Source: an uncultured Syntrophaceae bacterium
Lineage (GTDB): Bacteria; Desulfobacterota; Syntrophia; Syntrophales; UBA2210
Reading direction: 5' to 3'
Length of the DNA: 64,000 nucleotides
NCBI GenBank assembly: GCA_964610735.1
Contig: CAZSYH010000005.1
Coordinates: 5,912-69,911, forward strand
Under the pieces are notes generated by a model that was given only the letters and a program-made list of their open reading frames with translations, was not told the DNA's origin and made no database searches. Below, piece after piece: positions 9,884 to 47,707 of the stretch (its first letter is position 1; every line of letters starts with the position of its first letter). Made by a program: the position numbers and the translations under genes.

Positions 9884-9900
9884 GAAGGGAGGGTATTAAC

Positions 9901-34094: not shown

Positions 34095-34205
34095 GAGGTA
34101 ACAGGCCTCCGAGTGTAACCGCCTAAAGGTTTTTGCCAATGGCATTACACCGAAGGGTTTTCCCGGAAACGGGGAAGCCTCCCGTGTTTGGAAAGAAGGC
34201 TGAAC
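34095..34205 (+). promoter_or_regulatory. Moco/Tuco (moaA-motif) riboswitch candidate
   Basis: GGCCUCCGAG ... CACCGAAGGG ... GNRA hairpin CCCG-GAAA-CGGG ... GCCUCCCGUGUUUGGAAAGAAGG. The 3' block nearly matches the E. coli moaA leader (GCCUCCCGUAUCUGGAAAGG) as I recall it. Helices GUGUAA/UUACAC and UGCC/GGCA can form. Confidence 0.6.
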
Positions 34206-34715
34206 TTTCCATGACTGTTTGTATAATATCCGCAATAGGGGATAATACGATGGTTAATTCACGGGCGCTTCTAAACAACACCTATTCTCCTTATTTTACC
34301 CCGTATACATTTATATCTCTTATCTTGCCTTGTGGATTACTGTCTTTAAACAATACATTCTCCAAAGAAAGCATAACGGCGGAGTGTTGTCGTAGCAGTA
34401 TGCTGAGCCATTGTAAGATCAAGGTGATCAAGTGTCCATCTGAATCTTTTTGACGTTTTACCGACTTACTGTCCAGAAAGTAAGTGCGGAAAAACAGAAG
34501 GGAGGTGTCAAATTACAATCCGGAGCAGCGAAGCCTCAATCTCAAAGGTAAAAGGCTTCAAGCTCGCATTTTCGAATCAGGTGAATGGCGGGGTTAGGTG
34601 TTAATCTCCTGATATTTACAGCTATTAGCCTTTCACCATAAGCATCAACCTCTTCGTAATAAAACGAAGTTGTTGATAATAAAGACTAACAAACTATCAG
34701 GATGGAGGTTATCCC

Positions 34716-35432
34716 ATGGAAACAGAAGAGAAGAAATATCCTGAGGTTCTTCAGAGAGAGACATCCCGTCGTGGATTTCTCAAGGGAGCTGCTGTAGCGG
34801 CGGGAGGCGCCGTTGCGCTGGCAACAATTGGTGTCATAAAACCCGCTGCTGTCAAGGCCGCTAACCCGGCACCGCCTCCCAAGATGATCAAGCATCTGTT
34901 TGTCGAACGTCAGAACTGTACAGGATGCCGGGGATGTGAATTTGCATGTTCCCTGTTCCACGAAGGAGTTGTCAGGCCTGAAGCTGCGAGAGTACATGTC
35001 AACAAGTATAAAGGTATCATCGATATCCCGGTAATTTGCTGGCATTGCGAAGATGCACCCTGTATTGCAGCGTGTCCCGTTGAGCCTACGGCTATCTACA
35101 AGGATGAAAAAACGAACGGCATCCTCTTGAATAAGGATACGTGTCTCGGTGCCAAGTGCAGTAAATGTGTGGAGGCATGCCCGGCACAGTTCCTGAGGTT
35201 GCATCCCGATACAGGACACCCTCTGACATGTGACCTTTGCGGTGGCGACCCGGAATGCGTGAAAGCATGCCTGGCACAATCGGGAAATCCCCAAGGGCCC
35301 TGTATTATGGGAGACAAACTCGGTTTCGGTGTGAACCTGGCATATCGCGATGTAACACCGGAGGAAGCTGCTAAGGACATGACTGTCAACTTCTTCTATC
35401 CAAATGAAACCGGGGAAAGGAGGGCTATATAA
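34716..35432 (+). CDS. Tat-signal 4x[4Fe-4S] ferredoxin subunit (NrfC/DmsB-like)
   Basis: Twin-arginine motif TSRRGFLKG, an h-region and AVKA-A cleavage site, and four Cys cluster motifs (CTGCRGCEFAC, CWHCEDAPCIAACP, CLGAKCSKCVEACP, CDLCGGDPECVKAC). Confidence 0.85.
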   Translation: METEEKKYPEVLQRETSRRGFLKGAAVAAGGAVALATIGVIKPAAVKAANPAPPPKMIKHLFVERQNCTGCRGCEFACSLFHEGVVRPEAARVHVNKYKGIIDIPVICWHCEDAPCIAACPVEPTAIYKDEKTNGILLNKDTCLGAKCSKCVEACPAQFLRLHPDTGHPLTCDLCGGDPECVKACLAQSGNPQGPCIMGDKLGFGVNLAYRDVTPEEAAKDMTVNFFYPNETGERRAI

Positions 35433-37237
35433 TGGCAGCACCACGAGGAGGAAATTTTGGAAAGGTTCTGGAAATCGATTTATCAAAAAAAACCTTTAAA
35501 ACGCGTACCGTGCCGGAGGAGATATATCAGCAATTTCTTGGTGGGGCGGGCATGGGGGATTACTTTCTTCTGCACGAGTATAAAGCCCATCAGGACCCCC
35601 TTGCTGAAAACAGCTTCCTGTATCTCGGGGCGGGCCCACTGGATGGAACGTATTGTCCGTCCACTCGAATGAGCGTCGTCCACATGAGTCCGTACACAAA
35701 AAGGCTCAGTCATGCCGAAGTGGGGGCTCATATAGGCGCCGAGATTAAGTGGGCCGGCTGGGACGGCATCTATATCCTGGGAAAATCGAAAAAGCCGGTA
35801 TGGCTCTATATCCGGAACGACAAAGTGGAGTTCAGAGATGCCAGTAACTTATGGGGCAAGGATACCGCTACAACGGAAGATATGATTGTAGAGGAATTGA
35901 AGGATCCCCGGGTCAGGGTCGCCTGTATCGGTCCCGCTGGTGAGAATGAAGTCCCGTATTCCTGTCTTATAGTAGAGCGTTTCAGGGCTGCCGCCAGGAC
36001 GAGCACCGGCGCGCTCATGGGAAACAAGAAATTAAAGGCTATTGCTATCAAGGGAAGCGGGTATGTTCCCGCAGTTGACAGCGATAAATTCATCAAAGCG
36101 GCCAAGGCAGCGAAGCAGTATGCCGTTGACAATGAAGGCTGGCAAGGCATCAAACGATGGGGCACTGCCGGTCTGCTTGAGCTGAAGAACTGGGGCACGG
36201 GATCACTCGTTACGAAAAATTATCAGACCACCTGGTTCCCGGACATTGAATACATCGGTGCCGAGGAGGCAAACCGTCGTTTCTGGAAAAGGCATGTGGC
36301 CTGTACGCACTGCCCCGTTCACTGTCAGAAACTTGGTGTTATTCGAGGTGGCAAGTACAGTGGCCTCATAGCTGAGGGGCCCGAATATGAAACCGGCGGC
36401 CTTTTGGGCAGCAATCTCGACATTTCTGAGTTTGATGGCATGATGGCCGCGATTGAACTGTGTGATGCCCTTGGCCTCGATGCCATTTCAACCGGCGGAT
36501 GTATCGGTTTTGCCATGGAATGCGTCCAGAAAGGTGTTCTCTCGAAGGCTGATCTTGACGGCATTGATCTCGAATGGGGCAACGCGGATGGGGTTGTCGA
36601 GATGGTGAAAAAGATCGCTTACAAGAACGGGAAAGCGGGAAAGCTGCTCTCTAAAGGCGTTGTTGCCATGTCACAGGAAATAGGCCACGGTTCCGAGAAA
36701 TGGGCCGTTCATACAAAGGGCAAAGAGATGGCTGCTCATGACCCGCGGGGCGATAAACCGAGGGGTGTCAGTTATGCCATGGGCCAGTGCGGCGGTGACC
36801 ATCATGAATCCAACAGCCCCGCTGGCCAGGCCCAGCGATGTATCCACAATTCGCTTGTCTGCTGTTCATTTGTCGGCGGGTACTGGTCAATGGGTATGTT
36901 CACCGATATGCTGAACCCGCTGTGTGGGTGGAGTATATCGGAAGATGATATGATGAAAACAGGCAAACGAATCCGAACTCTGGAGCGTTGCTTTGATGTC
37001 CGTGAGGGTATCAGCCGGAAGGATGATATCCTGCCGTACCGTATGACAAACGAAGCACTGCCGGAGGGACCGAAGAAAGGAGCGATTTTTACCGAGGCCG
37101 ATACAAAGAAGATGCAGGAAGATTATTATGCGTTCTTCGGATGGGATAGCAACGGTGTCCCGACGGAGAAGGCCTTGAATGATCTTGGACTCGCATTTCT
37201 TATTGACGATATCAAAGCGGCTAAGAAAAATTTGTAA
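35432..37237 (+). CDS. aor: tungsten-type aldehyde:ferredoxin oxidoreductase family protein
   Basis: 601 aa with an AFOR_N-type N-terminus (GKVLEIDLS...FLGGAGMG), CxxCxxxC (CTHCPVHC), GPEYET, and pterin-binding motifs (CDALGLDAIS, SLVCCSF). There is no signal peptide. TAATG coupling links it to the upstream Tat ferredoxin. Confidence 0.92.
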   Translation: MAAPRGGNFGKVLEIDLSKKTFKTRTVPEEIYQQFLGGAGMGDYFLLHEYKAHQDPLAENSFLYLGAGPLDGTYCPSTRMSVVHMSPYTKRLSHAEVGAHIGAEIKWAGWDGIYILGKSKKPVWLYIRNDKVEFRDASNLWGKDTATTEDMIVEELKDPRVRVACIGPAGENEVPYSCLIVERFRAAARTSTGALMGNKKLKAIAIKGSGYVPAVDSDKFIKAAKAAKQYAVDNEGWQGIKRWGTAGLLELKNWGTGSLVTKNYQTTWFPDIEYIGAEEANRRFWKRHVACTHCPVHCQKLGVIRGGKYSGLIAEGPEYETGGLLGSNLDISEFDGMMAAIELCDALGLDAISTGGCIGFAMECVQKGVLSKADLDGIDLEWGNADGVVEMVKKIAYKNGKAGKLLSKGVVAMSQEIGHGSEKWAVHTKGKEMAAHDPRGDKPRGVSYAMGQCGGDHHESNSPAGQAQRCIHNSLVCCSFVGGYWSMGMFTDMLNPLCGWSISEDDMMKTGKRIRTLERCFDVREGISRKDDILPYRMTNEALPEGPKKGAIFTEADTKKMQEDYYAFFGWDSNGVPTEKALNDLGLAFLIDDIKAAKKNL

Positions 37238-37260
37238 GGAAAATTTTTAGGTAAATGATG

Positions 37261-37296
37261 AATAATCGGGGCAGGCATCAGCCTGCCCCGATTATT
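37261..37296 (+). terminator. perfect 16-bp stem hairpin after aor
   Basis: aataatcggggcaggc atca gcctgccccgattatt. No U-tract follows, so its terminator function is uncertain. Confidence 0.45.
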
Positions 37297-37523: not shown

Positions 37524-38210
37524 ATGAAACTGTCGCGGCGAGATGTACTTCATATAATCATCAGCGGTGCCATATCGGGAATCGTTTTTATCTTCTTCAA
37601 GGTTTCTGGAGCAAAGGCATTGCCCCGTCCGCCGGGGTCACTCATTGAAAACGAATTTCTGAAGTACTGCACCCGATGCTACAGATGCATAGACGTGTGC
37701 CCTGCCGACGCGCTTAAACCTGCCGGCATTCTTGACGGCATAACCAACCTGGGCACACCGGTTCTCGATTGGAAGAAGTGTATCATGTGTATGGAATGTG
37801 TCAGAATATGTCCCACCGAAGCTATTAAGAAAGTCCCCAAAAAAGAGATTGATATCGGAAACGCGGTGATCGAGCCCGACACATGCCTCTCCTGGCAGAA
37901 AACGAGCAGATGCAAAAATTGTTACAAGGCCTGCAAGTATGATGCTATCAAGCTGGAAAAGGGGCGATTTCCCGTTGTCATAGAGGAAAACTGTACGGGT
38001 TGCGGCGCCTGTGAGCAAAGGTGCCCGACCGACCCTAAGTCTATTGTTGTACATTACGACAAGGTTAAAAGATTTGATCCTTCCGGAAATCGATTTGTTT
38101 TACAACTTGAAGATCGAGTAGGGCCTTATGATTTTCCTCAGTCTGATTTCAAAACATGGTTTGCAGGCAGGATGGAGAAGCTGGCCAGACACTATGGGAT
38201 TATAAAATAA
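37524..38210 (+). CDS. NapG/MauM-like ferredoxin with twin-arginine N-terminus
   Basis: SRRDVL plus a hydrophobic segment, then LPRPPGSLIENEFLKYCTRCYRCIDVCP, which parallels E. coli NapG [28 protein letters not shown] as recalled. Four Fe-S motifs are present. Confidence 0.8.
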   Translation: MKLSRRDVLHIIISGAISGIVFIFFKVSGAKALPRPPGSLIENEFLKYCTRCYRCIDVCPADALKPAGILDGITNLGTPVLDWKKCIMCMECVRICPTEAIKKVPKKEIDIGNAVIEPDTCLSWQKTSRCKNCYKACKYDAIKLEKGRFPVVIEENCTGCGACEQRCPTDPKSIVVHYDKVKRFDPSGNRFVLQLEDRVGPYDFPQSDFKTWFAGRMEKLARHYGIIK

Positions 38211-38269
38211 GGGGCAAGGGAAAGAGTGGCCTTCAATTTTGCATTAAAAGAGATAAGGATCAACCTCTA

Positions 38270-39529
38270 ATGACTGGTTTTGAACATATTCAAAATACAG
38301 GAAGAGATGCTGTACTGGTTGTCGGTGGCGGTGTAGCGGGCATTACGGCTTCTCTGGATCTGGCGGATGCGGGTCAGTCCGTTCATCTGGTAGAAAACGA
38401 CAGTCATCTCGGTGGTCAGGTCTCAAAACTGGATAAACTCTATCCGACCGATCACTGTGCCTTCTGTCCCCTCTGGACAGATGTCAAAAAGTGTATGGAC
38501 CATCCTTTAATTACTGTTCATACGCTCTCTCACATAAAGGAATTGACGCAAGAAAACGGTAGCTATTCAGCCCTCATCCTGAAACATCCTCATTACATAG
38601 ATGACAAGAAATGTATTTTCTGCGGACGATGTGTGGATGAGTGTCCGGACAACGCTATACATTCCGGCTGGGAACATTTATATCCACCCACTTTCGTGAT
38701 TGATGAAGCTTTATGTACACAATGTGGCAACTGCACGAAGGTATGCCCTTCGGGTGCTATTAATATGGAGTTGAAAGAAGAAGAAATAAATCTTCTCGTG
38801 AGGGATGTCATATGGGCAACCGGTTTTAAAGAGGCCGATCTCAGTCACCTCAAGGAATATGGAAGCGGCACCCACCCTGATATTATGACGTCCATGGAAT
38901 TTGAAGAGTGGACCGCAGAAGCAGGAACCAACAGGGGAAATATCATCAAAAGATCGGATGGCGCGGTACCGGCAAACATCGCTTTTATACAGTGCGCCGG
39001 AGCGAGGGACCTCAGGATGATTCCATCCTGCTCTGCCGTATGCTGCATGCATGCCTTCAAACAGGCCGAGTGGGTGAAAAGAAGAAATCAAAGGATCGAT
39101 TGTTATATCTTTTATACCGATTTAAGAACGGTGGGGCGCGATTATTACAGATATTCCCTGAAGAATTTTGAAGGTGCTGATGTCAAACTTGTCAGGGGAC
39201 GACCGGGATTGATCCATCCCATGCCCGGCGGTAATGGGATCGCGGTACAATTTGAAAATACGATAACACAAAAAAGAGAGATCAGAAAATTTGACATTGT
39301 GATCCTGAACGGGAACATTCAGCCTTCCCTTATTCAGCTCTGTCCGGCACAATCTGAAAAGAAAGTGGCTCCTCAGATAGACAAAGAAGGGTTCGTTATT
39401 GAAGAGTCAGGCGAAACATCTGCTTTTGCATGCGGCTTCGGTCTTGAACCGGCAGATGTTGCCGAGTCCGTAATCCAGGCGTCCGCTGCCGCAATGAGAG
39501 TTATGAATAAAGAATCTGACCAACGGTAG
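38270..39529 (+). CDS. HdrA/QmoA-like FAD-dependent oxidoreductase with inserted 2x[4Fe-4S] ferredoxin domain
   Basis: VVGGGVAGITASLDLADAG dinucleotide fold, DHCAFCP motif, and CIFCGRCVDECP plus CTQCGNCTKVCP. The start is set at ATG 38270. Confidence 0.8.
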   Translation: MTGFEHIQNTGRDAVLVVGGGVAGITASLDLADAGQSVHLVENDSHLGGQVSKLDKLYPTDHCAFCPLWTDVKKCMDHPLITVHTLSHIKELTQENGSYSALILKHPHYIDDKKCIFCGRCVDECPDNAIHSGWEHLYPPTFVIDEALCTQCGNCTKVCPSGAINMELKEEEINLLVRDVIWATGFKEADLSHLKEYGSGTHPDIMTSMEFEEWTAEAGTNRGNIIKRSDGAVPANIAFIQCAGARDLRMIPSCSAVCCMHAFKQAEWVKRRNQRIDCYIFYTDLRTVGRDYYRYSLKNFEGADVKLVRGRPGLIHPMPGGNGIAVQFENTITQKREIRKFDIVILNGNIQPSLIQLCPAQSEKKVAPQIDKEGFVIEESGETSAFACGFGLEPADVAESVIQASAAAMRVMNKESDQR

Positions 39530-39537
39530 AGTGAAAC

Positions 39538-41232
39538 ATGGCAAACATATCTGTTTTTTTATGCAAATGTTTAGGAGAAATTGATCACATAATCGATTTT
39601 GGTCTTCTCCGTGAGGAATTATCAAAAAATTCTTCTGTTGCCCTCATATCGACCGTTGATTCCCTCTGTCTCGAAACGGATATAGAGAAAACTATTTCTC
39701 TGATAAAGGAAACTGACGCTGATAAGGTATTAATCGCCGCCTGTTCTATTTTGTCGAGAGGCAATCTTGTCGTTGACTGTCTTATCAGAGCGGGGGTCGA
39801 GAGGCATAAGATCGCTCTGGTGGATATCAGGGAAGGATGCGCCTGGATTCATGGCGACAATCCTGAAGACGCCTCAAAAAAAGCAAAAGACCTCATAAAT
39901 ATGGGGATCGCTGCTCTTCAGCATAAAGAAATGTCCGACGACATGTCCGTCACCGTTAATCCGAGTGCCATGATAATAGGTGCAGGCCCCGCAGGCCTTG
40001 CCGCCGCCATATCCGTAGCAAAAATGGGATATGAGGTTAGTATCCTCGAAAGATCAAAGGACCCCGGAGGGATGCTTCGATTCATCTCCCGATGTTATCC
40101 AGGCAACGACGATGCATCGAACAAACTGGAACCATATATTAAAGAGATTGAGAATAATCCCCTCATTACCTTCTATCCGCAATCAAAAATCGCTTCTATT
40201 GAGGGAAACACCGGTAATTTCACCGTTCACTTTTCATCTCAGGAAAAAGATAGTTCCATCCATTCAGGAGTTATCATCATCGCGACAGGCGCAAAGATAT
40301 TTTTCCCGACCGGTCTTTATGGCTATGGAGAAATCAAGAATGTGATCACACAGATGGAGTTTGAGATACAAATCCTGAATGGATCATTAGAAACAAAAAA
40401 AACCGTATTTATACAATGTGTTGGCGCAAGAGATAGAAAAAGACCGTATTGTTCAACTATTTGTTGTCCAATCAGTCTTAAGAATGCATCGAGGATCGCT
40501 GAAGATGTCCCGGGCGGGTCAGTATTTATTCTCCACCGGGGGATCATGACGCCGGGGAGCACCCCGGAGAAATATTACAGGGATACACTCTCAAGTGGTG
40601 TACAGTTTATTCGTTTTGAAGAGGAACAACCACCTCGGATCATAGGCAGTGACCATGTTGAATTCGTTGAGGTGTATGATGCGATAACCGGGATTACAAG
40701 GAAGATTGAGACTGATCTGGTGGTCTTAAGTACTCCCCTTATCCCAAATAATGACAATGCGCGACTGGCTCAGATGCTGGGTATTGAAGTTGACCGTTAT
40801 GGGTTTTTCTCGGAGGTCTATCCGATGCATCCCCTGGAGACAAAAACGGATGGCATCTTCATCTGCGGCTCGGCGAGATGGCCCGTTTCTTCAGATCATT
40901 CGATAATACAGGGGAAAGCGGCAGCCATGAAGGCGGTCTCGTATTTAAAACAGAGTAAAATTGCCGCATCAACACTCAGCCGGGTCCCCGGTCCGAAAGC
41001 AGGTCATGCCTGTGTTAATGTCGATGCATGCACGGGGTGTGGTAACTGTGTTGCTGTCTGTCCCTTCGACGCCTGTCAGCTTGAAAAGCTTGAGGGCAAG
41101 TACGTAAGTACGGTGAACCTCATGAAATGCAAGACCTGTGGTAACTGCGTTCCATTATGCCCCAACGGGAGCATACAGATTCCCGAACATAACTACCGCA
41201 TGGTGGGGGGAATGATACAGAGGGCATTTTAG
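39538..41232 (+). CDS. HdrA/QmoB-like FAD-dependent oxidoreductase with C-terminal 2x[4Fe-4S] domain
   Basis: IIGAGPAGLAAAISVAKMG fold, CVGARD...YCSTICC HdrA-type motif, and C-terminal CTGCGNCVAVCP and CKTCGNCVPLCP. Confidence 0.8.
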   Translation: MANISVFLCKCLGEIDHIIDFGLLREELSKNSSVALISTVDSLCLETDIEKTISLIKETDADKVLIAACSILSRGNLVVDCLIRAGVERHKIALVDIREGCAWIHGDNPEDASKKAKDLINMGIAALQHKEMSDDMSVTVNPSAMIIGAGPAGLAAAISVAKMGYEVSILERSKDPGGMLRFISRCYPGNDDASNKLEPYIKEIENNPLITFYPQSKIASIEGNTGNFTVHFSSQEKDSSIHSGVIIIATGAKIFFPTGLYGYGEIKNVITQMEFEIQILNGSLETKKTVFIQCVGARDRKRPYCSTICCPISLKNASRIAEDVPGGSVFILHRGIMTPGSTPEKYYRDTLSSGVQFIRFEEEQPPRIIGSDHVEFVEVYDAITGITRKIETDLVVLSTPLIPNNDNARLAQMLGIEVDRYGFFSEVYPMHPLETKTDGIFICGSARWPVSSDHSIIQGKAAAMKAVSYLKQSKIAASTLSRVPGPKAGHACVNVDACTGCGNCVAVCPFDACQLEKLEGKYVSTVNLMKCKTCGNCVPLCPNGSIQIPEHNYRMVGGMIQRAF

Positions 41233-41303
41233 AGAAATGCCAAACACTTTTTTGTCATTACTGGTTAGGTGGTTATCAGTACCGAAGCGGAAGGCAGATA
41301 ATC

Positions 41304-41744
41304 ATGCATACGGTTAAAATGAAAAATCCGAAGATCCTGATTTTTGCTTGCAAATGGTGCGGGCTTATCGGAGCGGATGCCGCCGGGAAGAAGAGGATAT
41401 CTCTCCCCTCTCAGTTTCGTGTCATTCCGGTGGAATGCGCATCTCTTGTTGAACCCGATGCCGTCCTGAGAGCGCTGGCCGGGGGGATTGATGGCATAGC
41501 TGTTCTGGGATGTCACATAGGAGGGTGTCGGTATAATAATGCGAATCACACTGCCATCAAGAGAATGGAACTTCTAAAAGATCTGCTGGATACAACCGGC
41601 ATCGGACGCAGCAGGCTTTTGCTCAGTTTTGGGACCGCACATGAAGATTATCAATTTGAAGAGATAATAAAGAGTTTTTTTGACGAGGTATCGTTACTGA
41701 CCCCCCTTGATCCCTGGTTGTCGTCGTTTGGAGTGATAAGCTGA
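41304..41744 (+). CDS. mvhD: MvhD/FlpD-like [2Fe-2S] hydrogenase delta-subunit-family protein
   Basis: ILIFACKWCG...IPVECASLV...GIAVLGCHIGGCRY pattern typical of MvhD. Confidence 0.82.
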   Translation: MHTVKMKNPKILIFACKWCGLIGADAAGKKRISLPSQFRVIPVECASLVEPDAVLRALAGGIDGIAVLGCHIGGCRYNNANHTAIKRMELLKDLLDTTGIGRSRLLLSFGTAHEDYQFEEIIKSFFDEVSLLTPLDPWLSSFGVIS

Positions 41745-41746
41745 TT

Positions 41747-42598
41747 ATGCTCGAGAAAACAAAAAACATAGCAAGACAGATTCTTGAAGAGAAAAAGGCT
41801 GGTGGTATCCTGGGCCTCATGAAAGGGCAATGGAATATCATCCAGCCCCATATTTTTGAAGCACCTGCGGAATTAGACGCCCTTGTTCTTGAACCGAAGT
41901 GGTTGCTGGCAAAGCTCGCTATGGGAATATTACGTTCCTCACCGGAAAATTACAAACTGGCTGTAATCTGCCGTGGATGTGATGAAAGGGCACTGATTGA
42001 ACTGATAAAGAGAAATCAGATAGAGAAGGAAAGCCTCCTTACGATTGGAATTGCCTGCAGTCAGGAACAGGCAGCCCTATGCCTTTGCGACAGGCCGTAC
42101 CCCACGAAACTCGACGCAGGGGAGAAGGTTAAAGGGGTAGATCCTTTCCAGGACGAAAGAGTCCGGGAGTTTTTGATCGGTAATGACAAACAAAGGATGG
42201 AGAGGTGGGCTGATATGCTGAAGAGGTGTATCAAGTGTTACGGCTGCCGCAATTCCTGCCCTATCTGCATCTGTGAACCCTGCAAACTGGAAGACGATGT
42301 CTGGGTGAAAAGGGGTGTTGTGCCGGCGGAAGCAATAACCTTTCATCTTATACGTGCCTTCCACCTGTCGGATACATGTGTGGCCTGTGGGGCCTGTCAG
42401 GAAGCCTGTCCCGTTAATATCCCGCTCCTCTATCTGCAGTTCTCGATGCGCAAAACAATCCAGGAATACTACGGGTACGAGGCGGGACTTGATCTTGAGA
42501 TAAAATCACCAGTTCTTTCCGGTGTTTTCGAAGGACCCGATACGGACAGGGAATATCCTGCATGGGTAAACTCGATGAGGGAACGAGATGGGATCTAA
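41747..42598 (+). CDS. 2x[4Fe-4S] protein (AsrA/HydB/FdhB-like electron-transfer subunit)
   Basis: CIKCYGCRNSCPICIC and CVACGACQEACP motifs. It overlaps the fdhA start by 11 nt. The precise family was not recognised. Confidence 0.6.
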   Translation: MLEKTKNIARQILEEKKAGGILGLMKGQWNIIQPHIFEAPAELDALVLEPKWLLAKLAMGILRSSPENYKLAVICRGCDERALIELIKRNQIEKESLLTIGIACSQEQAALCLCDRPYPTKLDAGEKVKGVDPFQDERVREFLIGNDKQRMERWADMLKRCIKCYGCRNSCPICICEPCKLEDDVWVKRGVVPAEAITFHLIRAFHLSDTCVACGACQEACPVNIPLLYLQFSMRKTIQEYYGYEAGLDLEIKSPVLSGVFEGPDTDREYPAWVNSMRERDGI

Positions 42599-44630
42599 AT
42601 TTGTCAAGACCATTTGTCCTTACTGTGGAACAGGCTGTGGCCTTATAATAAAGATCATAGATGGTGTGGCCGTTGCCACCTATCCCGACAGGGAACACCC
42701 TGTCTCTCGAGGTAGTTTGTGCATAAAGGGATGGTCTGCTCACGAGTTTATCAACCATCCCGACCGCTTGACATCGCCTCTTTTGAGAAAGGGTGACACG
42801 TTTCAGGAAATCCCATGGGATGAAGCCATACCGATGGCGGCCTTGAAATTGCGTGAGACTGCCGCACGATATGGCGGCGATGCCATTGGTGGTCTTTCTT
42901 CCGCCAAGTGTACCAATGAAGAAAATTACCTTTTCCAGAAACTGATACGCATGGCATTTAAAACGAACAACGTGGATCACTGTGCACGTCTGTGCCATGC
43001 CCCGACTACCGTTGCAATGGTACAGGCCCTTGGCAGCGGGGCAATGACGAATTCTATTTCGGATCTGGCCGGAGCTGAGTGTATCATTGCCATCGGTTCC
43101 AACACAGCGGAGAGTCACCCGATCATCATGGGGGGAATTTATAAGGCCACTGACAGGGGTGCGACACTCATCGTTGTCGATCCCCGTGAAACGGCAGTCA
43201 CCCGGAATGCAAAGATTCACCTCCGGATAAATCCGGGAACGGATATACCCCTTTTGTGCGGTATGATGAGACACATTATTGATGAAGGACTGCACAACGA
43301 GGAATTCATCAGGGACCGTATGGAAGGATTTAAAGATCTGAATACATTCCTCCAGTCGTGGCCTGTCAAACGGGCTGCCGACGAATGCGGTATCGATGAA
43401 GAGCTCATCAGAAATGTGGCTACGATTTATGCAAAAGCAAAAGAATCTGCCGTAATCTATTGCATGGGTATCACTCAACATGCCTGTGGAACAGCCAACG
43501 TCCTCGCCATTTGTGACCTTGCCATGTTGTGCGGTCATGTTGGAACAGAACATTCCGGCATATATCCCCTTCGGGGACAGAATAATGTTCAGGGCGCCTG
43601 CGATATGGGTGCCCTGCCCAATGTCTATCCCGGATACCAGAGTGTCAGCGATTCGGCAATTCAGGACAAATTTCAAAAGGCCTGGGGGACTGAACTCTCC
43701 GATAAGCCGGGCCTTACCGTTACGGAAATCATCGGCCTCGCGGGGAAGGATATCCGCGCAGCCTATATCATGGCGGAAAATCCCGCATTGAGTGATCCCG
43801 ATACCAACCATGTTTTGGAGTCACTGAAAGCCTTTGATTTTCTCATCGTTCAGGATATTTTTCTCACCGAGACGGCAAAATTCGCACATCTGATATTTCC
43901 CAGCTCCTGTTTTGCCGAGAAGTCCGGGACGTACACCAATACGGAGAGAAGATTTCAGCTCTTGCGAAAGGCAGTCGATCCGCCGGGAAATGCAAAAGAA
44001 GACTTTGCGATTTTATGCCTTTTGGGAAACGCTTTGGGACTTAATTTTTCTTACATCCATCCTGCAGAAGTAATGGAGGAAATCGCGTCTCTGGCCCCGG
44101 CCTACGGCGGTATCCGCTTTGACAGGTTGGAGCTGGAAGGTCTGCAGTGGCCCTGCCCTGATTCAGAGCATCCAGGCACACGGTATCTTCATAAAGACCG
44201 GTTTACGAGAGGCAAAGGACTTTTCGTCATCCCCGAGTATACTCCACCCAGGGAACTACCCGATGATAAGTATCCTTATTATCTAAGTACGGGAAGAATG
44301 TTTGCTCATTATCATACTGGTACAATGACGCGCCGATCACCCTTTCTCAACAGGGAGGTGGAAAAGGCCTATGCCGAGATCAACCCGGAAAATGCTGCTC
44401 ATCTGAACGTAAAAGACGGGGAGAAAATAAAGCTAACAACCCGCAGGGGGAGTATTATAACAACCGCCCGGATAACGAAACGTGTTGCAAAGGACTGTAT
44501 TTTCGCTCCTTTCCACTTTGCCGAGGCACGGGCCAATATGTTGACCAATCCGGTCCTGGATCCCCATTCCAAGATACCGGAATTCAAGGTATGTGCCGCA
44601 GATGTAAGGAAGGAAACAGAGGATGGCTAA
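42588..44630 (+). CDS. fdhA: formate dehydrogenase catalytic subunit (Mo/W-bisPGD, Cys-type, cytoplasmic)
   Basis: N-terminal [4Fe-4S] CPYCGTGC, active-site HCARLCHAPT (Cys-His at the Sec/Cys position), downstream RGQNNVQGA, and no Tat signal. Confidence 0.88.
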   Translation: MGSKFVKTICPYCGTGCGLIIKIIDGVAVATYPDREHPVSRGSLCIKGWSAHEFINHPDRLTSPLLRKGDTFQEIPWDEAIPMAALKLRETAARYGGDAIGGLSSAKCTNEENYLFQKLIRMAFKTNNVDHCARLCHAPTTVAMVQALGSGAMTNSISDLAGAECIIAIGSNTAESHPIIMGGIYKATDRGATLIVVDPRETAVTRNAKIHLRINPGTDIPLLCGMMRHIIDEGLHNEEFIRDRMEGFKDLNTFLQSWPVKRAADECGIDEELIRNVATIYAKAKESAVIYCMGITQHACGTANVLAICDLAMLCGHVGTEHSGIYPLRGQNNVQGACDMGALPNVYPGYQSVSDSAIQDKFQKAWGTELSDKPGLTVTEIIGLAGKDIRAAYIMAENPALSDPDTNHVLESLKAFDFLIVQDIFLTETAKFAHLIFPSSCFAEKSGTYTNTERRFQLLRKAVDPPGNAKEDFAILCLLGNALGLNFSYIHPAEVMEEIASLAPAYGGIRFDRLELEGLQWPCPDSEHPGTRYLHKDRFTRGKGLFVIPEYTPPRELPDDKYPYYLSTGRMFAHYHTGTMTRRSPFLNREVEKAYAEINPENAAHLNVKDGEKIKLTTRRGSIITTARITKRVAKDCIFAPFHFAEARANMLTNPVLDPHSKIPEFKVCAADVRKETEDG

Positions 44631-45084
44631 CGATAACGACAGGATTGCCGAAGCAAGGAGATTTTCCTGCGCATACAGTTGCGTGGAATGTGGCAGGTGC
44701 GTTGCAGTCTGTCCCATGGCAGAGATGTATACAAATTTTTCTATCGAAATGTCACCACGGGGAGTCATTAAGAAAACTCTGGTCGGGAATGACATCATCA
44801 CGGACGAAAATATATGGTATTGTACCGAATGTAATGCCGGTACCGATATTTGTCCACAGGGGGTTAGCTGTCGCGATCTGATTCGAGGTCTCAGGGAAAT
44901 AGCAATCGAAGAAAACATGGTTGAAAATTTAAAATACTGTACCCGTTGCGGCAAACGGTTTTTATCAATTCCCGCAAAAAACTTTGTTTTTGAAAGGTTG
45001 AGAGAGGAACCTCCTAACGTTTTGAACGTTCTCGAACTTTGCCCCTCATGCAGGAGGGAGATGTACATGTTACGTAACACATAG
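44623..45084 (+). CDS. HdrC-like 2x[4Fe-4S] protein with C-terminal zinc-ribbon-like Cys pairs
   Basis: CVECGRCVAVCP and CTECNAGTDICP, then CTRC...CPSC. It overlaps the fdhA stop. Confidence 0.7.
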   Translation: MANDNDRIAEARRFSCAYSCVECGRCVAVCPMAEMYTNFSIEMSPRGVIKKTLVGNDIITDENIWYCTECNAGTDICPQGVSCRDLIRGLREIAIEENMVENLKYCTRCGKRFLSIPAKNFVFERLREEPPNVLNVLELCPSCRREMYMLRNT

Positions 45085-45092
45085 GCAATGTG

Positions 45093-46400
45093 ATGCAGGA
45101 ACAAACAAACGAACAAAATAACATTATCACCCTTGAGGAACTCAGGCCACGCCCGGAAGAGAAGAAAACCTTCTCCGACCACTTTATGCCGCGACTTCAT
45201 CCCGGCATCCTCTTTGATCCTAAAAAATGTACCGGGTGCGGCACCTGCGAGATGGTTTGTTCCTTAAGAAATGTTTCTAAAATAGCCCCCACTTCTGCAA
45301 GCATAAAAGTGCTCAGAGATGAGAACAGTGTCAAGAATTTTGCGATCTTCTGCCAGCATTGCCGCAAGCCTCTGTGCATAGAAGCCTGCCCCACCAGGGC
45401 GATTGAAAAGGGGGAAGACGGGATTGTCCGTATCGACAAACTGTTCTGTGTAGCATGCGGTCTTTGTACGATGGCCTGCCCGGAAGCCGCACCGCTTCAA
45501 GATCCAATAACGGGAGAGATCAATAAATGCGATCTGTGTGAGGGAGATCCACAGTGTGTCAAATATTGCCCGTCAGGAGCCCTTACTTTTACAAAGGGGA
45601 AAAGGATTCGATGGATAAAAGCCTTGCGATGGTCCGTTCAGACTATTTCATTTCTCCTTCTGGTCGTTGCCCTGATTGGAACATTCTGTTCTCTAAAGGC
45701 GGGCGCGCTTAGTTTATCCTGTCCCGCGGGAGTCCTGCAGAATATTGCGTCATCAGGTACCGTCGTGCTCGTCTGGATTCTGTCGGCTTCCCTGATCCTC
45801 GGGTTGACCATACTTGCGGGAAGATTTTTCTGTGGGTGGATCTGCCCCTTCGGCTTTTTTCTCGATCTTGTCGATAAAATTACGCCAAAGAAGATCGGAT
45901 GGCCGTCATTTCTCAAAAGCAGGATGGCAAAGTACGGAATCCTTGCCGGAGCTGTGGGAGGAAGTTGTGCCCTCGGTTTCCAGGCCTTTTGTCCTGTATG
46001 TCCCATAGGTTCAATTTGCCGTTCCTATGGAGCGGCCGGGACCCTTAATGGTGCGAATATGGGAATAGTGGCTGTACTGGGAGGCCTCGAAGTAACAGAA
46101 CGGCGGGTCTGGTGCCGATACTTCTGCCCGGTAGGGGCACTGCTGGCGCTCTTTGCAAAGATCGGTCTGATAAAAATTGTCATCGGCGCAAATCAGTGCA
46201 AGAAGTTTTCCTGTGTTCAATGTGCGGAAGTATGTCCCATGGGAATTATTGACGCGGATAAGTTGCGAGAAGGCATATCACCGGAGATACCGATGACCGA
46301 ATGTATTACATGTATGAGATGCATTGACCGATGCCCTTACGGCGCGGCAAAGATACGGTTCAGGTGGCAAAAGGCGGTGCCGGAGAATGTTGAATTATGA
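45093..46400 (+). CDS. fusion of a DmsB-type poly-[4Fe-4S] ferredoxin domain to a NapH-like integral-membrane Fe-S protein
   Basis: N-terminus carries CTGCGTCEMVC, CQHCRKPLCIEACP, CVACGLCTMACP and CDLCEGDPQCVKYCP. The membrane part carries GRFFCGWICPFG and WCRYFCPVGAL (NapH hallmarks) plus two C-terminal Fe-S motifs. Confidence 0.8.
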   Translation: MQEQTNEQNNIITLEELRPRPEEKKTFSDHFMPRLHPGILFDPKKCTGCGTCEMVCSLRNVSKIAPTSASIKVLRDENSVKNFAIFCQHCRKPLCIEACPTRAIEKGEDGIVRIDKLFCVACGLCTMACPEAAPLQDPITGEINKCDLCEGDPQCVKYCPSGALTFTKGKRIRWIKALRWSVQTISFLLLVVALIGTFCSLKAGALSLSCPAGVLQNIASSGTVVLVWILSASLILGLTILAGRFFCGWICPFGFFLDLVDKITPKKIGWPSFLKSRMAKYGILAGAVGGSCALGFQAFCPVCPIGSICRSYGAAGTLNGANMGIVAVLGGLEVTERRVWCRYFCPVGALLALFAKIGLIKIVIGANQCKKFSCVQCAEVCPMGIIDADKLREGISPEIPMTECITCMRCIDRCPYGAAKIRFRWQKAVPENVEL

Positions 46401-47707
46401 AGCTATTCGATAATTTCTACAACATGAAGGTTGGGATAGTCGACCTCACTCAATTATCCTCAGAGGTAATTCCTCTGGACGAGCAGATTGTCGCGGAAAA
46501 GATCGGCGGAGCAGCAGTAAATGAAGATCTTTTCAGGCAATATAAAGATGATGCTCCTCTGCTCATTGGTGTTGGTCCACTGACGGGCAGCTTTGCCCCC
46601 GCTTCATGCCTTTCGGTTGCAACCTTTTTATCGCCACGATTCGGAAATCTCTGCCACGTTCCTCTTATGATGCGTACCGGCCCCGAGATGAAGTTCTCGG
46701 GCATTGATTTCCTGGTGATCAAGGGAACTGCTTCCTCACCCAAGATATTGCATATAGATAAGGGAGCCATACAGATCTTATCTGCGGAACAGTTCATTGG
46801 CGTTGATATCCCTGAGGGTTTACAGACACTGAAAAAGGAAAGGATTCATTCCCGGTCAATCCTCCTGACAGGCACCGCCGCTGACCACGGGGTCCCGAGT
46901 GCTTCTGTTTCAACAGGCTTTAACGGCAGTTTGGATAAAGCGGGTCTGGCCTTTCTGATGGCCTCAAAAAATCTCAAAGGGGTCATCTTCAATGGAACTG
47001 GTGGCCTTCCCTTCGCCGAAGATAACCTTGAGGATAATGAAACAATTGAAAGAAAGCTTTTCGCGGATGAAGGACATGAGAATAAAGGCTTTCTTTCTAT
47101 GTTGGATAAGATCGGAATCGAAGAGAATCTGAAGGGGGTCATAAAAAAAGCAAAATGGCGGGACATGGCATGCTATCACTGTCCTTCTCCATGTATGAAT
47201 TCTGTCCAGTTTACATGGCACGATCCCCGGAAGAATTCCAGAGTCGAAGATAATATATTACTTTCAGATCATCTGGGATTTCTCGCGCTGGCAAAGAAAG
47301 GGGGGAAAGATGTGTTTCCACTTTCAGAAAGTTGCCTCCGTTTTGGTCTTGACCCAGTTGCCGTTGCGGAGAAATTGCCGGAGAACGGATCATTACTTGA
47401 ATCTCTGAACGCTATAGAAGAGATCTCCGTTACACCGGAAGAACCGAAGATCAAAAGGGAACACCACCAGATCGGAGAGGTTTCAGCTGAAATGCATAAC
47501 CTTTACGGCGGCGGGTTACCACCAATTTTAGCTGAAGAATTGTGGAAGAAACGGGTCCGGCTTTCTATGATTCTGGGTGTATGCCCAATATTTTTACTTC
47601 GTTTCACACAGATTTCGGAACTTGATCTTCTAAAGTTCCTCACAAGCAATGAACATGATCTGAAGTTTTTAGAAAAAAAAGAAATCCAATCTCTCATTAA
47701 AAAATAA
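46397..47707 (+). CDS. shortened AOR-family paralog (436 aa)
   Basis: AFOR_N-like N-domain (IGGAAVN..., VGPLTG). It retains CxxCxxxC (CYHCPSPC) and both pterin-type motifs (CLRFGLDPVAV, ILGVCPIF) in a compressed C-terminal region. An ATGA overlap links it to the preceding gene. Confidence 0.72.
   Translation: MKLFDNFYNMKVGIVDLTQLSSEVIPLDEQIVAEKIGGAAVNEDLFRQYKDDAPLLIGVGPLTGSFAPASCLSVATFLSPRFGNLCHVPLMMRTGPEMKFSGIDFLVIKGTASSPKILHIDKGAIQILSAEQFIGVDIPEGLQTLKKERIHSRSILLTGTAADHGVPSASVSTGFNGSLDKAGLAFLMASKNLKGVIFNGTGGLPFAEDNLEDNETIERKLFADEGHENKGFLSMLDKIGIEENLKGVIKKAKWRDMACYHCPSPCMNSVQFTWHDPRKNSRVEDNILLSDHLGFLALAKKGGKDVFPLSESCLRFGLDPVAVAEKLPENGSLLESLNAIEEISVTPEEPKIKREHHQIGEVSAEMHNLYGGGLPPILAEELWKKRVRLSMILGVCPIFLLRFTQISELDLLKFLTSNEHDLKFLEKKEIQSLIKK

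Follow-up and report, generated by a model that had tools for sequence, protein, structure and literature searches.

What takes the place of HdrB in an Hdr-like flavin module that shares one gene string with a formate dehydrogenase (Fdh) and lacks this subunit? The question is raised by the genome of an uncultured Syntrophaceae bacterium, of which we analyzed a window of 64,000 nucleotides. An earlier note on this DNA had described seven consecutive genes at positions 38270-45084 and proposed that, with no heterodisulfide site encoded, another component would have to be the high-potential branch of any flavin-based bifurcation, an adjacent NapH-like membrane protein and the AOR paralogs being the candidates named.

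Gene content and extent of the cluster

The interval 38270-45084 holds six genes rather than seven (HdrA1, HdrA2, MvhD, FdhB', FdhA, and HdrC'), tightly packed with spacings of −10 to +71 bp; all the genes named previously are present where they had been placed, on the + strand. The real unit exceeds this interval. It extends over 34095-47707 and comprises eleven genes and a riboswitch, in the order Moco/Wco riboswitch, WorS, WorL, NapG, the six hdr/fdh genes, WorS::NapH, and AORN (Table 1). Within this cluster of eleven genes, which is widely conserved, the six make up the cytoplasmic half; as napG and napH flank them, the membrane and cytoplasmic modules are interleaved.

Table 1. Features of the cluster, with positions in the window
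Feature	Position	Strand	Remarks
Moco/Wco riboswitch aptamer, P3 stem absent	34095..34214	+	RF01055; ~500 nt upstream of worS
WorS, 4x[4Fe-4S] small subunit of tungsten oxidoreductase, twin-arginine signal	34716..35432	+	
WorL/AOR1, AOR-family catalytic subunit, no signal peptide of its own	35432..37237	+	start overlaps worS stop
GC-rich hairpin, 15 bp, terminator- or attenuator-like	37262..37295	+	3' of worL
NapG-like 4x[4Fe-4S] protein, RR signal, predicted periplasmic	37524..38210	+	
HdrA1, QmoA-like: FAD/TrxR domain, CxxC, HA4-type cluster motif, inserted 2x[4Fe-4S] domain	38270..39529	+	
HdrA2, QmoB-like, without MvhD: N-terminal HdrA domain, FAD/TrxR domain, C-terminal 2x[4Fe-4S] domain	39538..41232	+	
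MvhD, [2Fe-2S] connector	41304..41744	+	PF02662 E 4.6e-35
FdhB', truncated FdhB/ElpB-type Fe-S subunit without FAD/F420 part	41747..42598	+	
FdhA, cytoplasmic Mo/W formate dehydrogenase catalytic subunit, Cys type	42588..44630	+	
HdrC', HdrC-like 2x[4Fe-4S] protein, extra C-terminal CxxC...CxxC motif	44623..45084	+	
WorS::NapH fusion	45090..46400	+	likely start ATG 45093
AORN, truncated WorL-like protein	46397..47707	+	AFOR_N only; start overlaps napH stop

The Hdr/Fdh module

HdrA1 aligns to HdrA residues ~144-561, that is, to the FAD/TrxR domain with the inserted 2x[4Fe-4S] domain, in agreement with its earlier description as a QmoA-sized HdrA-like protein with a ferredoxin insert. Its start at 38270 is backed by gene callers and orthologs, and its invariant cysteines are C63/C66, eight residues from C115 to C159, and C242/254/258/259. 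HdrA2 aligns to HdrA 6-235 and 308-647; its C-terminal ferredoxin domain had been recognized, whereas the N-terminal HdrA domain had been omitted. The TrxR domain of HdrA2 carries neither the insert nor the CxxC, both of which occur only in HdrA1. The two proteins map to complementary parts of HdrA, and their sets of invariant cysteines are complementary too.

MvhD, which has five conserved cysteines, had been identified correctly, as its Pfam match indicates. The next gene had been taken for a 2x[4Fe-4S] protein. It does encode an Fe-S protein, with 15 invariant cysteines, but the product is more than that, namely a truncated FdhB whose match to PDB 7bkb_E covers residues 78-132 and 250-382 (E 2.6e-33), with no match to the FrhB_FdhB Pfam domain in 41747-42598. 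Its AF2 model matches 7bkb_E and 8rvu_E, with a TM score against the former of 0.73 when normalized to the query and 0.52 when normalized to the target. FdhA scores 821 bits with TIGR01591 (cutoff 666), contains the motif HCARLCH with Cys at the Sec position, and yielded no signal peptide when one was looked for, all consistent with the cytoplasmic Cys-type enzyme (CARLCH) that had been proposed. Among PDB structures, the methanogen FdhA 9t1s_L matches it best (E 1.7e-218), and the active-site codon across related loci specifies Cys in 44 cases and is TGA (Sec) in 8. The designation of the last protein, HdrC', as HdrC-like holds at the level of HdrC models with E 1e-14, below their cutoffs; the qmoC model gives 1.9e-8. 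Residues C106, C109, C140, and C143, which form the C-terminal CxxC...CxxC, are invariant.

The resemblance to the methanogen FdhAB-MvhD-HdrABC(-Fmd) complexes (PDB 7BKB, 9T1S; Elp-Hdr 8RVU), already pointed out in the earlier note, reflects true homology of FdhA, the FdhB-type subunit, MvhD, and the HdrA domains; an HdrC-like subunit is shared as well, and so is the scheme in which a donor arm is combined with a flavin that has two exits. In contrast to these complexes, HdrA is divided here between two complementary genes, the FAD/F420 part is missing from FdhB, HdrB (CCG) is absent, membrane and periplasmic modules are added, and the host is a bacterium. The suggested likeness to QmoABC of sulfate reducers is also real as far as the HdrA split is concerned. 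Both systems have two HdrA-like flavoproteins, one of them MvhD-associated, no HdrB, and an HdrC-like Fe-S protein linked to a membrane subunit, and for Qmo a third partner, possibly Fdh, has been proposed (PMC3333476). However, MvhD is a separate gene here, the membrane subunit is of the NapH type and not an HdrE-like dihaem cytochrome b, the qmoC model covers only residues 19-100, and the partners are a tungsten oxidoreductase (WOR) and Fdh instead of AprAB.

Absence of HdrB

No CCG-domain HdrB or HdrD had been seen in the island, and re-annotation yielded none: PF02754 (CCG) has no match in any of the 11 island proteins, and when the whole window was searched for the motif in six frames, no frame of at least 100 aa contained a CCG tripeptide. 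The absence is conserved, with no CCG gene within +/-10 kb at 78 of the 79 related loci. The exception is one Chloroflexota locus, L069, where a CCG protein, found by the six-frame motif search and confirmed by Pfam (E 4.8e-38), and EtfBA are encoded just upstream of the cluster.

These numbers bear on the possibility that the module reduces disulfides as a canonical Hdr does, its HdrB or a CCG protein of the HdrD/DsrK-like kind being encoded at another place in the genome, with AOR and NapGH as conserved neighbors and not partners. The inspected sequence is only 64 kb of a genome, locus L069 shows that such a protein can accompany the cluster, and predicted bacterial HdrBCA-MvhD-FdhBA clusters exist (Desulfobacula toluolica, marine Chloroflexi) that share the FdhBA-MvhD-HdrA gene string; those, however, keep HdrBC and a single HdrA and have no WOR or NapGH genes. 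We consider this explanation highly improbable, given the 78 loci without a CCG gene, the invariant four-cysteine C-terminal module that HdrC' has in place of the HdrB-binding region, and the interleaved synteny, fusions, and Tat/NapGH covariation described below, which are hard to square with mere neighbors.

The tungsten enzyme and the membrane module

The best PDB matches of WorS are WOR small subunits (6x6u_B, 8c0z_C, 9mqx_E). It matches TAT_signal/TIGR01409, has 16 invariant cysteines, and in 42 loci its N-terminus conserves an SRRGFLKG motif, an h-region, and AxA. WorS is predicted from these features to be exported to the periplasm, carrying WorL with it. This predicted periplasmic location of the AOR and its small subunit is absent from the earlier note. 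WorL/AOR1 matches AFOR_N (E 3e-65), AFOR_C (E 9e-104), and the structures 9mqx_D and 1aor_A (both E ~1e-103), and its alignment keeps the CxxCxxxC...C cluster ligands, the equivalents of Glu313/His448, and the DxxGLD motif. The AOR-type active site appears intact, and the protein looks like a true aldehyde oxidoreductase. AORN matches PF02730 (E 1e-32), with no AFOR_C match in the Pfam search; its family is stable in length (408-465 aa), its CxxCxxxC motif is invariant, and its AF2 model (pLDDT 86.7) matches WorL structures over ~60% of their length.

The NapG-like protein matches NF007012 (E 1.2e-25) and TIGR00397 (E 1.6e-21), both below cutoff, and has 16 invariant cysteines and a conserved N-terminus (SRRD..h-region..AKALPRPPG). 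The NapH-like protein does adjoin the hdr/fdh genes as had been noted, but its N-terminal second WorS domain had been missed. The cytoplasmic WorS-type 4x[4Fe-4S] domain is followed by a membrane region, which has four hydrophobic segments by hydropathy and contains two CX3CP motifs, and the C-terminus is formed by a 2x[4Fe-4S] domain; the NapH models NF007013 (E 4e-30) and TIGR02163 match the protein below the family cutoffs. The N-terminal domain is 36% identical to WorS and matches 8c0z_C (E 5.7e-27), with 9sw6_G and 7bkb_K also among its matches. Both CX3CP motifs and the C-terminal clusters are common to E. coli NapH in the alignment, whereas five extra invariant cysteines in predicted periplasm-facing loops of the subfamily are absent from the E. 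coli protein.

Compared with the class V tungsten oxidoreductases (E. coli YdhYVWXUT, CsWOR41), WorL, a Tat-signal WorS, and membrane subunit(s) are shared, but AOR1 is only 27% identical to YdhV and closer to classical AORs, the membrane partner is NapGH-like and not a cytochrome b, and a cytoplasmic Hdr/Fdh module is undescribed for class V. With the NapGH quinol dehydrogenase of periplasmic nitrate reductase systems the cluster has in common a Tat-exported four-cluster NapG and a NapH in which two CX3CP motifs are combined with a cytoplasmic 2x[4Fe-4S] domain; it differs in lacking NapA, NapB, and NapC, in its scores below the NapG/NapH family cutoffs, and in the WorS domain and outer-loop cysteines of NapH. 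The class II benzoyl-CoA reductase BamBCDEFGHI likewise combines an AOR-family tungsten enzyme, a WorS-like subunit, HdrA-/MvhD-like proteins, and proposed bifurcation. However, AOR1 is far closer to AORs than to BamB (E 1e-103 vs 3e-56), WorS is exported, and neither BamD (CCG) nor BamGHI (NuoEFG-like) is present. A cytoplasmic CoA-ester substrate is incompatible with the predicted periplasmic location of the enzyme.

Conservation and transcript organization

A comparative search found the same gene string in several orders. The order WorS-WorL-NapG-HdrA1-HdrA2-MvhD-FdhB'-(FdhA)-HdrC'-WorS::NapH is kept in about 37 of the 39 loci with long enough flanks, from Syntrophales, Desulfobacterales, and Syntrophobacter; the string is present in the cultured D. 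autotrophicum HRM2 and Desulfosarcina widdelii. NapG accompanies Tat-type WorS in all 42 loci, as does NapH wherever the contig extends far enough, and three Chloroflexota loci with a signal-less WorS have neither. This covariation and the conserved interleaved string indicate that the NapH-like and AOR genes are members of the cluster and not chance neighbors. The Chloroflexota versions keep WorSL beside HdrA1-HdrA2-MvhD-FdhB'-HdrC'. FdhA is absent in the Desulfovibrionaceae-type loci, in which MvhD is fused to FdhB' and tatA and moeA are neighbors, as well as in D. alkanivorans and several Chloroflexota loci. As some lineages without FdhA keep all else, formate is probably not the universal partner.

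The riboswitch matches RF01055 with 70.7 bits (gathering score 36; E 1.2e-15), the P3 hairpin columns being deleted in the alignment, and is also found upstream of worS in loci L011, L013, and L028. A promoter-like site may lie nearby, at 34053-34081. The hairpin downstream of worL (−34.2 kcal/mol, z −4.5) has a strong counterpart at this position in practically every related locus, and in many of them a U-run comes next. It splits worSL from napG onward, so that the two halves may be expressed independently or at different stoichiometry.

Discussion

As the answer to the question of what replaces HdrB, we propose, at about even chances, NapGH and the tungsten enzyme, which would belong with the Hdr/Fdh proteins to a single Qmo-like complex that spans the membrane and either bifurcates or confurcates. 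The observed homologies, including that of the donor arm, domain complementarity, synteny, Tat/NapGH covariation, and gene fusions support it; the absence of CCG proteins, the cofactor riboswitch before worS, and the earlier proposal of an Fdh as partner of Qmo (PMC3333476) are also in its favor. On the other side, the hairpin between worSL and napG may count against a single complex, NapGH is a known quinol dehydrogenase, FdhA is absent from some lineages, and we know of no cofactor path across the NapH membrane domain. Moreover, the acid/aldehyde couple, at about −580 mV, cannot be a simple high-potential substitute for heterodisulfide; the earlier idea of NapH and AOR as the high-potential branch is supported only in that both belong to the conserved string, and for the AOR the potential is far too low. 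HdrA-containing complexes do not all bifurcate, and bifurcation by Qmo is unproven (PMC3333476).

We infer the assembly into one complex, its wiring, the direction of the electrons, and bifurcation itself, as follows. Two adjacent, co-oriented transcription units would encode the complex. Judging from the signal peptides, the tungsten AOR (WorL), the Tat-signal WorS, and NapG would reside in the periplasm and the WorS::NapH fusion in the membrane, with the truncated WorL-like AORN sitting on its cytoplasmic WorS domain. HdrA1 and HdrA2 would form a Qmo-like heterodimer in the cytoplasm; every functional element of the methanogen HdrA dimer is present exactly once between the two. According to published work, the donor arm consists of Fdh/Elp-MvhD and the HdrA N-/C-terminal domains and serves the partner's FAD', the high-potential electron travels via HA4' to HdrC, and the low-potential electron via HA3 to HA5'/HA6 in the inserted domain and then to polyferredoxin (PMC12350162). 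Here, HdrA2's N-terminal domain and its C-terminal one would be the mobile donor arm, binding MvhD, then FdhB', then FdhA, and HdrA1 would contribute the FAD at which bifurcation takes place, the HA4-type cluster as the route to HdrC', and its ferredoxin insert as low-potential exit. The flavin would then have three terminals: formate/CO2 through FdhA-FdhB'-MvhD, ferredoxin through the HdrA1 insert and, in HdrB's place, a path from HdrC' to WorS::NapH, on to menaquinone and/or NapG, and from there to WorS and WorL.

Alternatively, two enzymes could share one membrane anchor, with menaquinone and not the tungsten enzyme as the flavin's third terminal. WorSL-NapG-NapH would then act in the periplasm as an aldehyde:menaquinone oxidoreductase or, in line with a proposal for class V WORs, as a quinol-dependent reductase, and a separate Qmo-like FdhAB'-MvhD-HdrA1A2-HdrC'-NapH would bifurcate formate to menaquinone and ferredoxin or confurcate menaquinol and reduced ferredoxin to formate, the latter being feasible at syntrophic formate levels. 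The NapGH homology, with the CX3CP motifs and C-terminal clusters as in E. coli NapH, and the terminator-like hairpin before napG agree with this arrangement, as do the potentials of menaquinol (~−75 mV) and formate (~−430 mV; PMC3333476). Qmo offers a precedent as a menaquinol-linked HdrA pair, for which Ramos et al. (2012) proposed Fdh as the missing third partner via the MvhD domain (PMC3333476). Nevertheless, we regard a shared anchor as unlikely: the Chloroflexota loci that lack NapG and NapH keep WorSL beside the Hdr genes, which argues for a direct WOR-Hdr link, napG is grouped with the hdr genes and not with worSL, and the NapH-fused WorS domain and AORN are left without a role.

It is quite unlikely that the tungsten enzyme is instead the low-potential acceptor, like Fmd in the methanogen Fdh-Hdr-Fmd complex and BamB in class II benzoyl-CoA reductase, although both are examples of a pterin enzyme to which polyferredoxins bring electrons from an HdrA-type flavin (for one, see PMC12350162). 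Formate or reduced ferredoxin would be bifurcated to menaquinone (exergonic) and, at WorL, to a carboxylic acid or some other substrate of very low potential (endergonic). The low-potential electrons would travel on WorS-type polyferredoxins with the assistance of the membrane potential. The WorS-type domain of NapH resembles FmdF-/MvhB-type polyferredoxins, as its matches 9sw6_G and 7bkb_K show, and −75 and −580 mV average to a value above the formate potential, which would make the reaction as a whole downhill. However, it is not obvious what physiological use periplasmic acid reduction would have, HdrC', which in methanogens is the high-potential exit, adjoins the NapH fusion in gene order, and no route for −500 mV electrons across NapH is known. 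A shade more doubtful still is a linear redox loop without bifurcation, from periplasmic aldehyde oxidation through the membrane to cytoplasmic reduction of CO2 to formate or of ferredoxin, the two HdrA flavins being only one- to two-electron converters and a difference of ~150 mV being conserved as membrane potential. Under the predicted topology, a donor in the periplasm would face an acceptor in the cytoplasm, −580 mV plus roughly 150 mV of membrane potential comes close to the formate value given above, and the five extra outer-loop cysteines of NapH could hold an outer cluster; yet a linear chain would have no need of the complete bifurcation-type HdrA set (arm, HA4, insert) that all lineages keep, and no cofactor spanning the NapH membrane domain is known.

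The cluster had already been drawn in a 2009 genome paper, without interpretation there. In the membrane-spanning complex proposed here, formate, or reduced ferredoxin where FdhA is absent, would most likely be coupled by flavin-based bifurcation or confurcation to the membrane and periplasmic branch, and the distance from there to the aldehyde/acid couple, with its very low potential, would be covered by menaquinone together with the membrane potential.

Organization of the gene cluster

The gene string flagged in the earlier note is real: its members all lie on the forward strand and are tightly packed, with spacings of −10 to +71 bp, and they number six, not seven as originally counted. The reading of the architecture was largely right but too narrow. 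The actual unit extends both upstream and downstream, encompassing 11 genes from worS to aorN, which we refer to as the cluster.

Positions of the cluster genes and associated features in the window
Feature	Position	Strand	Description
Apparent dcw cell-division/cell-wall cluster	15-11070	+	Last genes ftsA, ftsZ
GGDEF diguanylate cyclase	30406-31329	+	N-terminal Tll0287-like domain
Promoter-like site	34053-34081		Just before the riboswitch
Moco/Wco riboswitch	34095-34214	+	RF01055, 70.7 bits
WorS	34716-35432	+	Four-cluster protein with canonical twin-arginine signal; matches WOR small subunits 6x6u_B, 8c0z_C and 9mqx_E
WorL/AOR1	35432-37237	+	AOR-family enzyme near classical AORs (1aor_A, 9mqx_D, E ~1e-103)
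Hairpin after worL	37262-37295	+	Perfect 15-bp stem
NapG-like protein	37524-38210	+	RR signal
Flagged gene string	38270-45084	+	Six genes, hdrA1 to hdrC'
HdrA1	38270-39529	+	Aligns with methanogen HdrA ~144-561, that is, the FAD/thioredoxin-reductase domain plus an inserted 2x[4Fe-4S] domain
HdrA2	39538-41232	+	Aligns with HdrA 6-235 and 308-647
HdrC' C-terminal CxxC...CxxC	44938-45051	+	C106, C109, C140, C143
Cysteines within the WorS::NapH membrane domain	45687-46019	+	C199, C210, C300, C303, C309 (numbered from ATG 45093)
80-aa ORF	47855-48097	+	Downstream of AORN

The six genes of the flagged string

All four domains of HdrA (N-terminal, TrxR/FAD, inserted-ferredoxin and C-terminal ferredoxin) were found, divided between two HdrA-like proteins, HdrA1 and HdrA2. 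In HdrA2 the N-terminal domain precedes a second, insert-free FAD domain, and a ferredoxin domain lies at the C terminus. An FAD domain is present in each protein, and both proteins score far under the HdrA equivalog cutoffs. The arm domains are confined to HdrA2 and the CxxC motif and inserted domain to HdrA1, and HA4-type motifs and FAD sites occur in both. The [2Fe-2S] connector MvhD is unambiguous (PF02662, E 4.6e-35), with its cysteines conserved.

The product described in the earlier note as a 2x[4Fe-4S] protein is indeed an Fe-S protein but is more than that, namely a truncated FdhB (FdhB'). Its sequence aligns with residues 78-132 and 250-382 of 7bkb_E, the FdhB of the Methanospirillum Fdh-Hdr-Fmd complex; FdhB residues 133-249 (about 105 residues) have no counterpart, and a Pfam search at E<=0.01 yielded no match to PF04422 or PF04432 (FrhB_FdhB). 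FdhB' has 15 invariant cysteines, and the only strong fold matches of its AF2 model (pLDDT 80) were 7bkb_E and ElpB (8rvu_E), with the fold match spanning only about half of FdhB. The match to FdhB in both sequence and fold rules out a generic ferredoxin.

FdhA is of the Cys type, not the Sec type, as had been read from the sequence: the HCARLCH motif carries Cys at the Sec position, and there is no signal peptide. The protein clears the FDH-alpha equivalog cutoff (TIGR01591, 821 bits versus 666) and has methanogen FdhA 9t1s_L as its nearest match, running end to end (E 1.7e-218). The active-site codon encodes Cys in 44 related loci and is TGA (selenocysteine) in 8, a count that covers the loci caught by the motif regular expression, which missed a further group. 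Examples of TGA are found at L028 11226, L069 11151 and L080 13376.

The HdrC-like protein HdrC' matches HdrC models at E ~1e-14, and hydropathy analysis revealed no hydrophobic segment. Its C-terminal CxxC...CxxC motif, invariant in 70 orthologs, sits where methanogen HdrC contacts HdrB and could form a zinc ribbon or an extra Fe centre.

Absence of a CCG domain

The heterodisulfide-site domain of HdrB (CCG, PF02754) matched 0 of the 11 cluster proteins, in agreement with the original observation, and a six-frame search for the CCG motif across the whole 64-kb window found none. No CCG domain turned up in another frame or a small ORF, and the same search caught a real CCG protein elsewhere. 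These searches cover the window, and an HdrB encoded elsewhere in the genome is a rival explanation for the missing subunit; among the related loci, a CCG gene was found near one only, L069, together with etfBA. In this locus, from a Chloroflexota MAG (Ca. Aquidulcis), the CCG protein (PF02754, E 4.8e-38), etfB and etfA occupy 35-2776, just upstream of the string beginning AOR-WorS-HdrA1.

Tungsten oxidoreductase and membrane subunits

Upstream of the flagged string are the genes for the small and catalytic subunits of a tungsten oxidoreductase (WOR), WorS and WorL, and for the NapG-like protein. In WorL, also designated AOR1, the cluster ligands, the equivalents of Glu313 and His448, and the pterin motif all align, and the scores against classical AORs are 347-351 bits.

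The gene directly after hdrC' encodes a membrane protein of the NapH type, denoted WorS::NapH because its first 170 residues form another WorS-type domain, 36% identical to WorS and matching 8c0z_C at E 5.7e-27. The five invariant cysteines of its membrane domain fall in predicted periplasm-facing loops; E. coli NapH lacks equivalents, and the five may build an additional, outward-facing metal site. The start codon of the next gene overlaps the napH stop codon. Its product, AORN, is a 436-aa truncated WorL-like protein with the AFOR_N domain alone, and its model (pLDDT 86.7) shows a truncated WorL fold that retains the CxxCxxxC cluster motif. A pseudogene is ruled out by this confident fold, the invariant cysteines and the stable size of the family (408-465 aa). 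Farther downstream, an 80-aa ORF, also called as a gene in identical metagenome contigs, aligns to AFOR_N at positions 1-38 only (E 7.7e-8) and looks like the remnant of a third AOR-family gene.

Conservation in other genomes

A scan for related loci with one genome per species returned 79 loci. As the earlier note had proposed looking for, the same gene string recurs in other genomes: among the 39 loci whose flanks are long, about 37 keep the order WorS-WorL-NapG-HdrA1-HdrA2-MvhD-FdhB'-(FdhA)-HdrC'-WorS::NapH. The hosts belong to Syntrophales, Desulfomonilia, Desulfobacterales (Desulfosarcina widdelii, D. alkanivorans) and Syntrophobacter, and also include D. autotrophicum HRM2, where the cluster occupies about 1,636,500-1,649,100 of CP001087.1. 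NapG is present in all loci with a Tat-type WorS (42 of 42), and so is NapH in those whose contig extends far enough. In three Chloroflexota loci WorS has no signal and NapG and NapH are both missing, yet AOR-WorS-HdrA1-HdrA2-MvhD-FdhB'-(FdhA)-HdrC' is retained.

Loci of the Desulfovibrionaceae type lack FdhA, have MvhD fused to FdhB', and additionally contain tatA, thiF and moeA. Examples of the fusion, 449-450 aa long, are L089 8170-9519 and L088 1353-2705; in loci of this type, tatA, thiF, a mogA-like gene and two moeA genes lie directly downstream (in L089 also 14340-14540). In an Anaerolineae locus (L078 489-5682), genes for hydantoinase A, hydantoinase B and a V4R-domain protein directly precede an HdrA1-HdrA2-FdhB'-HdrC' core; no AOR is present in this locus, and no MvhD match passed the tblastn filter. 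Given the hydantoinase neighbours and the absence of an AOR, the core module seems to be reused with other enzymes.

Regulatory elements and genomic neighbourhood

The Moco/Wco riboswitch, located ~500 nt upstream of worS, has its P3 hairpin deleted. Such P3-less variants have been linked to the tungsten cofactor. The riboswitch was also found in three close relatives (L011, L013, L028) and was not detected in L015, L046, L058 and L059. A promoter-like site lies at its upstream edge; consensus scans for sigma-70 promoters and terminators performed no better than on shuffled sequence.

The hairpin right after worL is GC-rich and stable (−34 kcal/mol, z −4.5). Essentially every related locus has a strong hairpin here, in many cases accompanied by a U-run; across about 45 loci the position is conserved but the sequence is not. 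Because of this conservation, worSL is probably a transcription unit of its own or made in excess, and the hairpin may act as a terminator or attenuator controlling how much WorSL is made relative to the other cluster proteins.

The apparent dcw cluster at the start of the window, called from translated N-termini only, indicates a chromosomal context. The diguanylate cyclase gene precedes the cluster by a few kb. Downstream of the cluster, L013 has a c-di-GMP riboswitch (19398-19482), and the Desulfosarcina widdelii locus L058 has a type II hammerhead ribozyme match (17186-17250, forward strand, 51.9 bits) at a distance of ~2.5 kb.

Comparison with known systems

The cluster joins four known kinds of system: the methanogen Fdh-MvhD-Hdr arm, Qmo, class V WOR and NapGH. 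With the Fdh-MvhD-HdrABC complex it shares FdhA (Mo/W-bisPGD, Cys-His active site) and the MvhD connector, but it lacks HdrB (in the 11 proteins and the 64-kb window) and the flavin/F420 part of FdhB. Unlike QmoABC, it has no QmoC, in which an HdrC-like domain is fused to an HdrE-like dihaem cytochrome b; HdrC' matches the qmoC model NF038018 only at residues 19-100 (E 1.9e-8; cutoff 300 bits). After the two HdrA-like genes the cluster has mvhD as a gene of its own; in Qmo the second HdrA-like protein is an MvhD fusion. No Pfam or NCBIfam model names HdrA1 or HdrA2 as QmoA or QmoB. Qmo is linked to aprBA, and the proteins scanned in and around the cluster include none that is Apr-like.

The feature shared with class V WOR is a WorL (AFOR_N plus AFOR_C) accompanied by a four-cluster, Tat-signal WorS. 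AOR1 is 27% identical to YdhV (WorL clade 41) in a pairwise comparison; with this identity and no homologs of YdhU, YdhW or YdhT, a plain paralog of E. coli YdhYVWXUT is ruled out as a close relative. Class V, Tat-exported tungsten oxidoreductases are of unknown function (PMC13328260). With NapGH, the cluster shares a 4x[4Fe-4S] NapG with predicted Tat export and a NapH that has two CX3CP motifs and ends in a 2x[4Fe-4S] domain, both scoring under the curated NapG and NapH cutoffs. Unlike periplasmic nitrate reductase systems, it lacks NapA and NapB; its sole molybdopterin protein is the cytoplasmic FdhA. Pfam and NCBIfam profiles detected no NuoEFG-type or CCG proteins in the cluster. A Bam-type benzoyl-CoA reductase is ruled out: AOR1 is far nearer to AORs than to BamB (4z3w_A, its weakest WOR match), WorS is predicted to be exported, and BamD and BamGHI are absent.

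Discussion

Proposed electron path

In methanogen HdrA, the high-potential electron exits via HA4' to HdrC and HdrB, and the low-potential electron passes through HA3 and then HA5'/HA6 of the inserted domain before reaching a polyferredoxin (PMC12350162). Since the arm, the CxxC motif and the insert each occur once and on complementary proteins, an HdrA1/HdrA2 heterodimer would provide one complete bifurcation site, which the domain mapping would place at the HdrA1 flavin. A linear redox loop in which bifurcation is absent is a rival explanation. The exit through HdrC' would have to do without HdrB, and the replacement branch might be WorS::NapH, then NapG, then WorSL, because the next gene, the synteny and the covariation of Tat-type WorS with NapGH point there.

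The acid/aldehyde couple lies at about −580 mV. Formate is at about −430 mV, ferredoxin at about −420 mV and menaquinol at about −75 mV, and the membrane potential is about 150 mV (the latter two values from PMC3333476). These potentials bar a simple substitution for HdrB; a contribution from menaquinone at NapH, from the membrane potential or from both is therefore required. There are two further rivals. The tungsten oxidoreductase and the Hdr module might simply have a common membrane anchor, in which case the true third terminal of the flavin would be quinone. Alternatively, WOR might be the low-potential acceptor, like Fmd and BamB.

A further-reaching reading, which we consider improbable, is that the cluster encodes the first HdrA-type bifurcating or confurcating machine with its third terminal outside the cytoplasmic membrane. 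Electrons would follow a largely Fe-S-wired path HdrC' → WorS::NapH → NapG → WorS → WorL, with the outer-loop NapH cysteines ligating an added cluster, and periplasmic aldehyde/acid oxidoreduction would be coupled to cytoplasmic formate/CO2 and ferredoxin with a contribution of the membrane potential. If true, this would constitute a low-potential, possibly quinone-independent redox loop; it would also assign a physiological function to class V tungsten enzymes and realise the proposed 'Qmo plus Fdh' scheme in hard-wired form.

Significance

A full-text literature search found no description or interpretation of the WOR-NapGH-Hdr-Fdh assembly. Bacterial HdrBCA-MvhD-FdhBA clusters have been predicted previously, and Fdh has been proposed as a possible third partner of Qmo (Ramos et al., 2012; PMC3333476). 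The hdrA loci of D. autotrophicum have been drawn with fdhB-fdhA, mvhD, ferredoxin, an Fe/S protein and Aor5, and the split of HdrA over 2-3 genes was remarked upon, with no function proposed (Strittmatter et al., 2009; PMC2702500). Both D. autotrophicum HRM2 and Desulfosarcina widdelii PP31, which are cultured, carry the cluster, and this makes the hypothesis directly testable.

HdrA-based electron bifurcation holds a central place in low-energy anaerobic life. To our knowledge, the partners of HdrA outside methanogens are mostly unknown, the third partner of Qmo has been an open question since 2012, and no membrane-associated tungsten oxidoreductase has an assigned role. The cluster hard-wires a split HdrA of Qmo-like form both to formate dehydrogenase and to a tungsten enzyme whose export is predicted, is widespread among syntrophs and completely oxidising sulfate reducers of sediments, peat and digesters, and suggests a function for the membrane-associated tungsten oxidoreductases.
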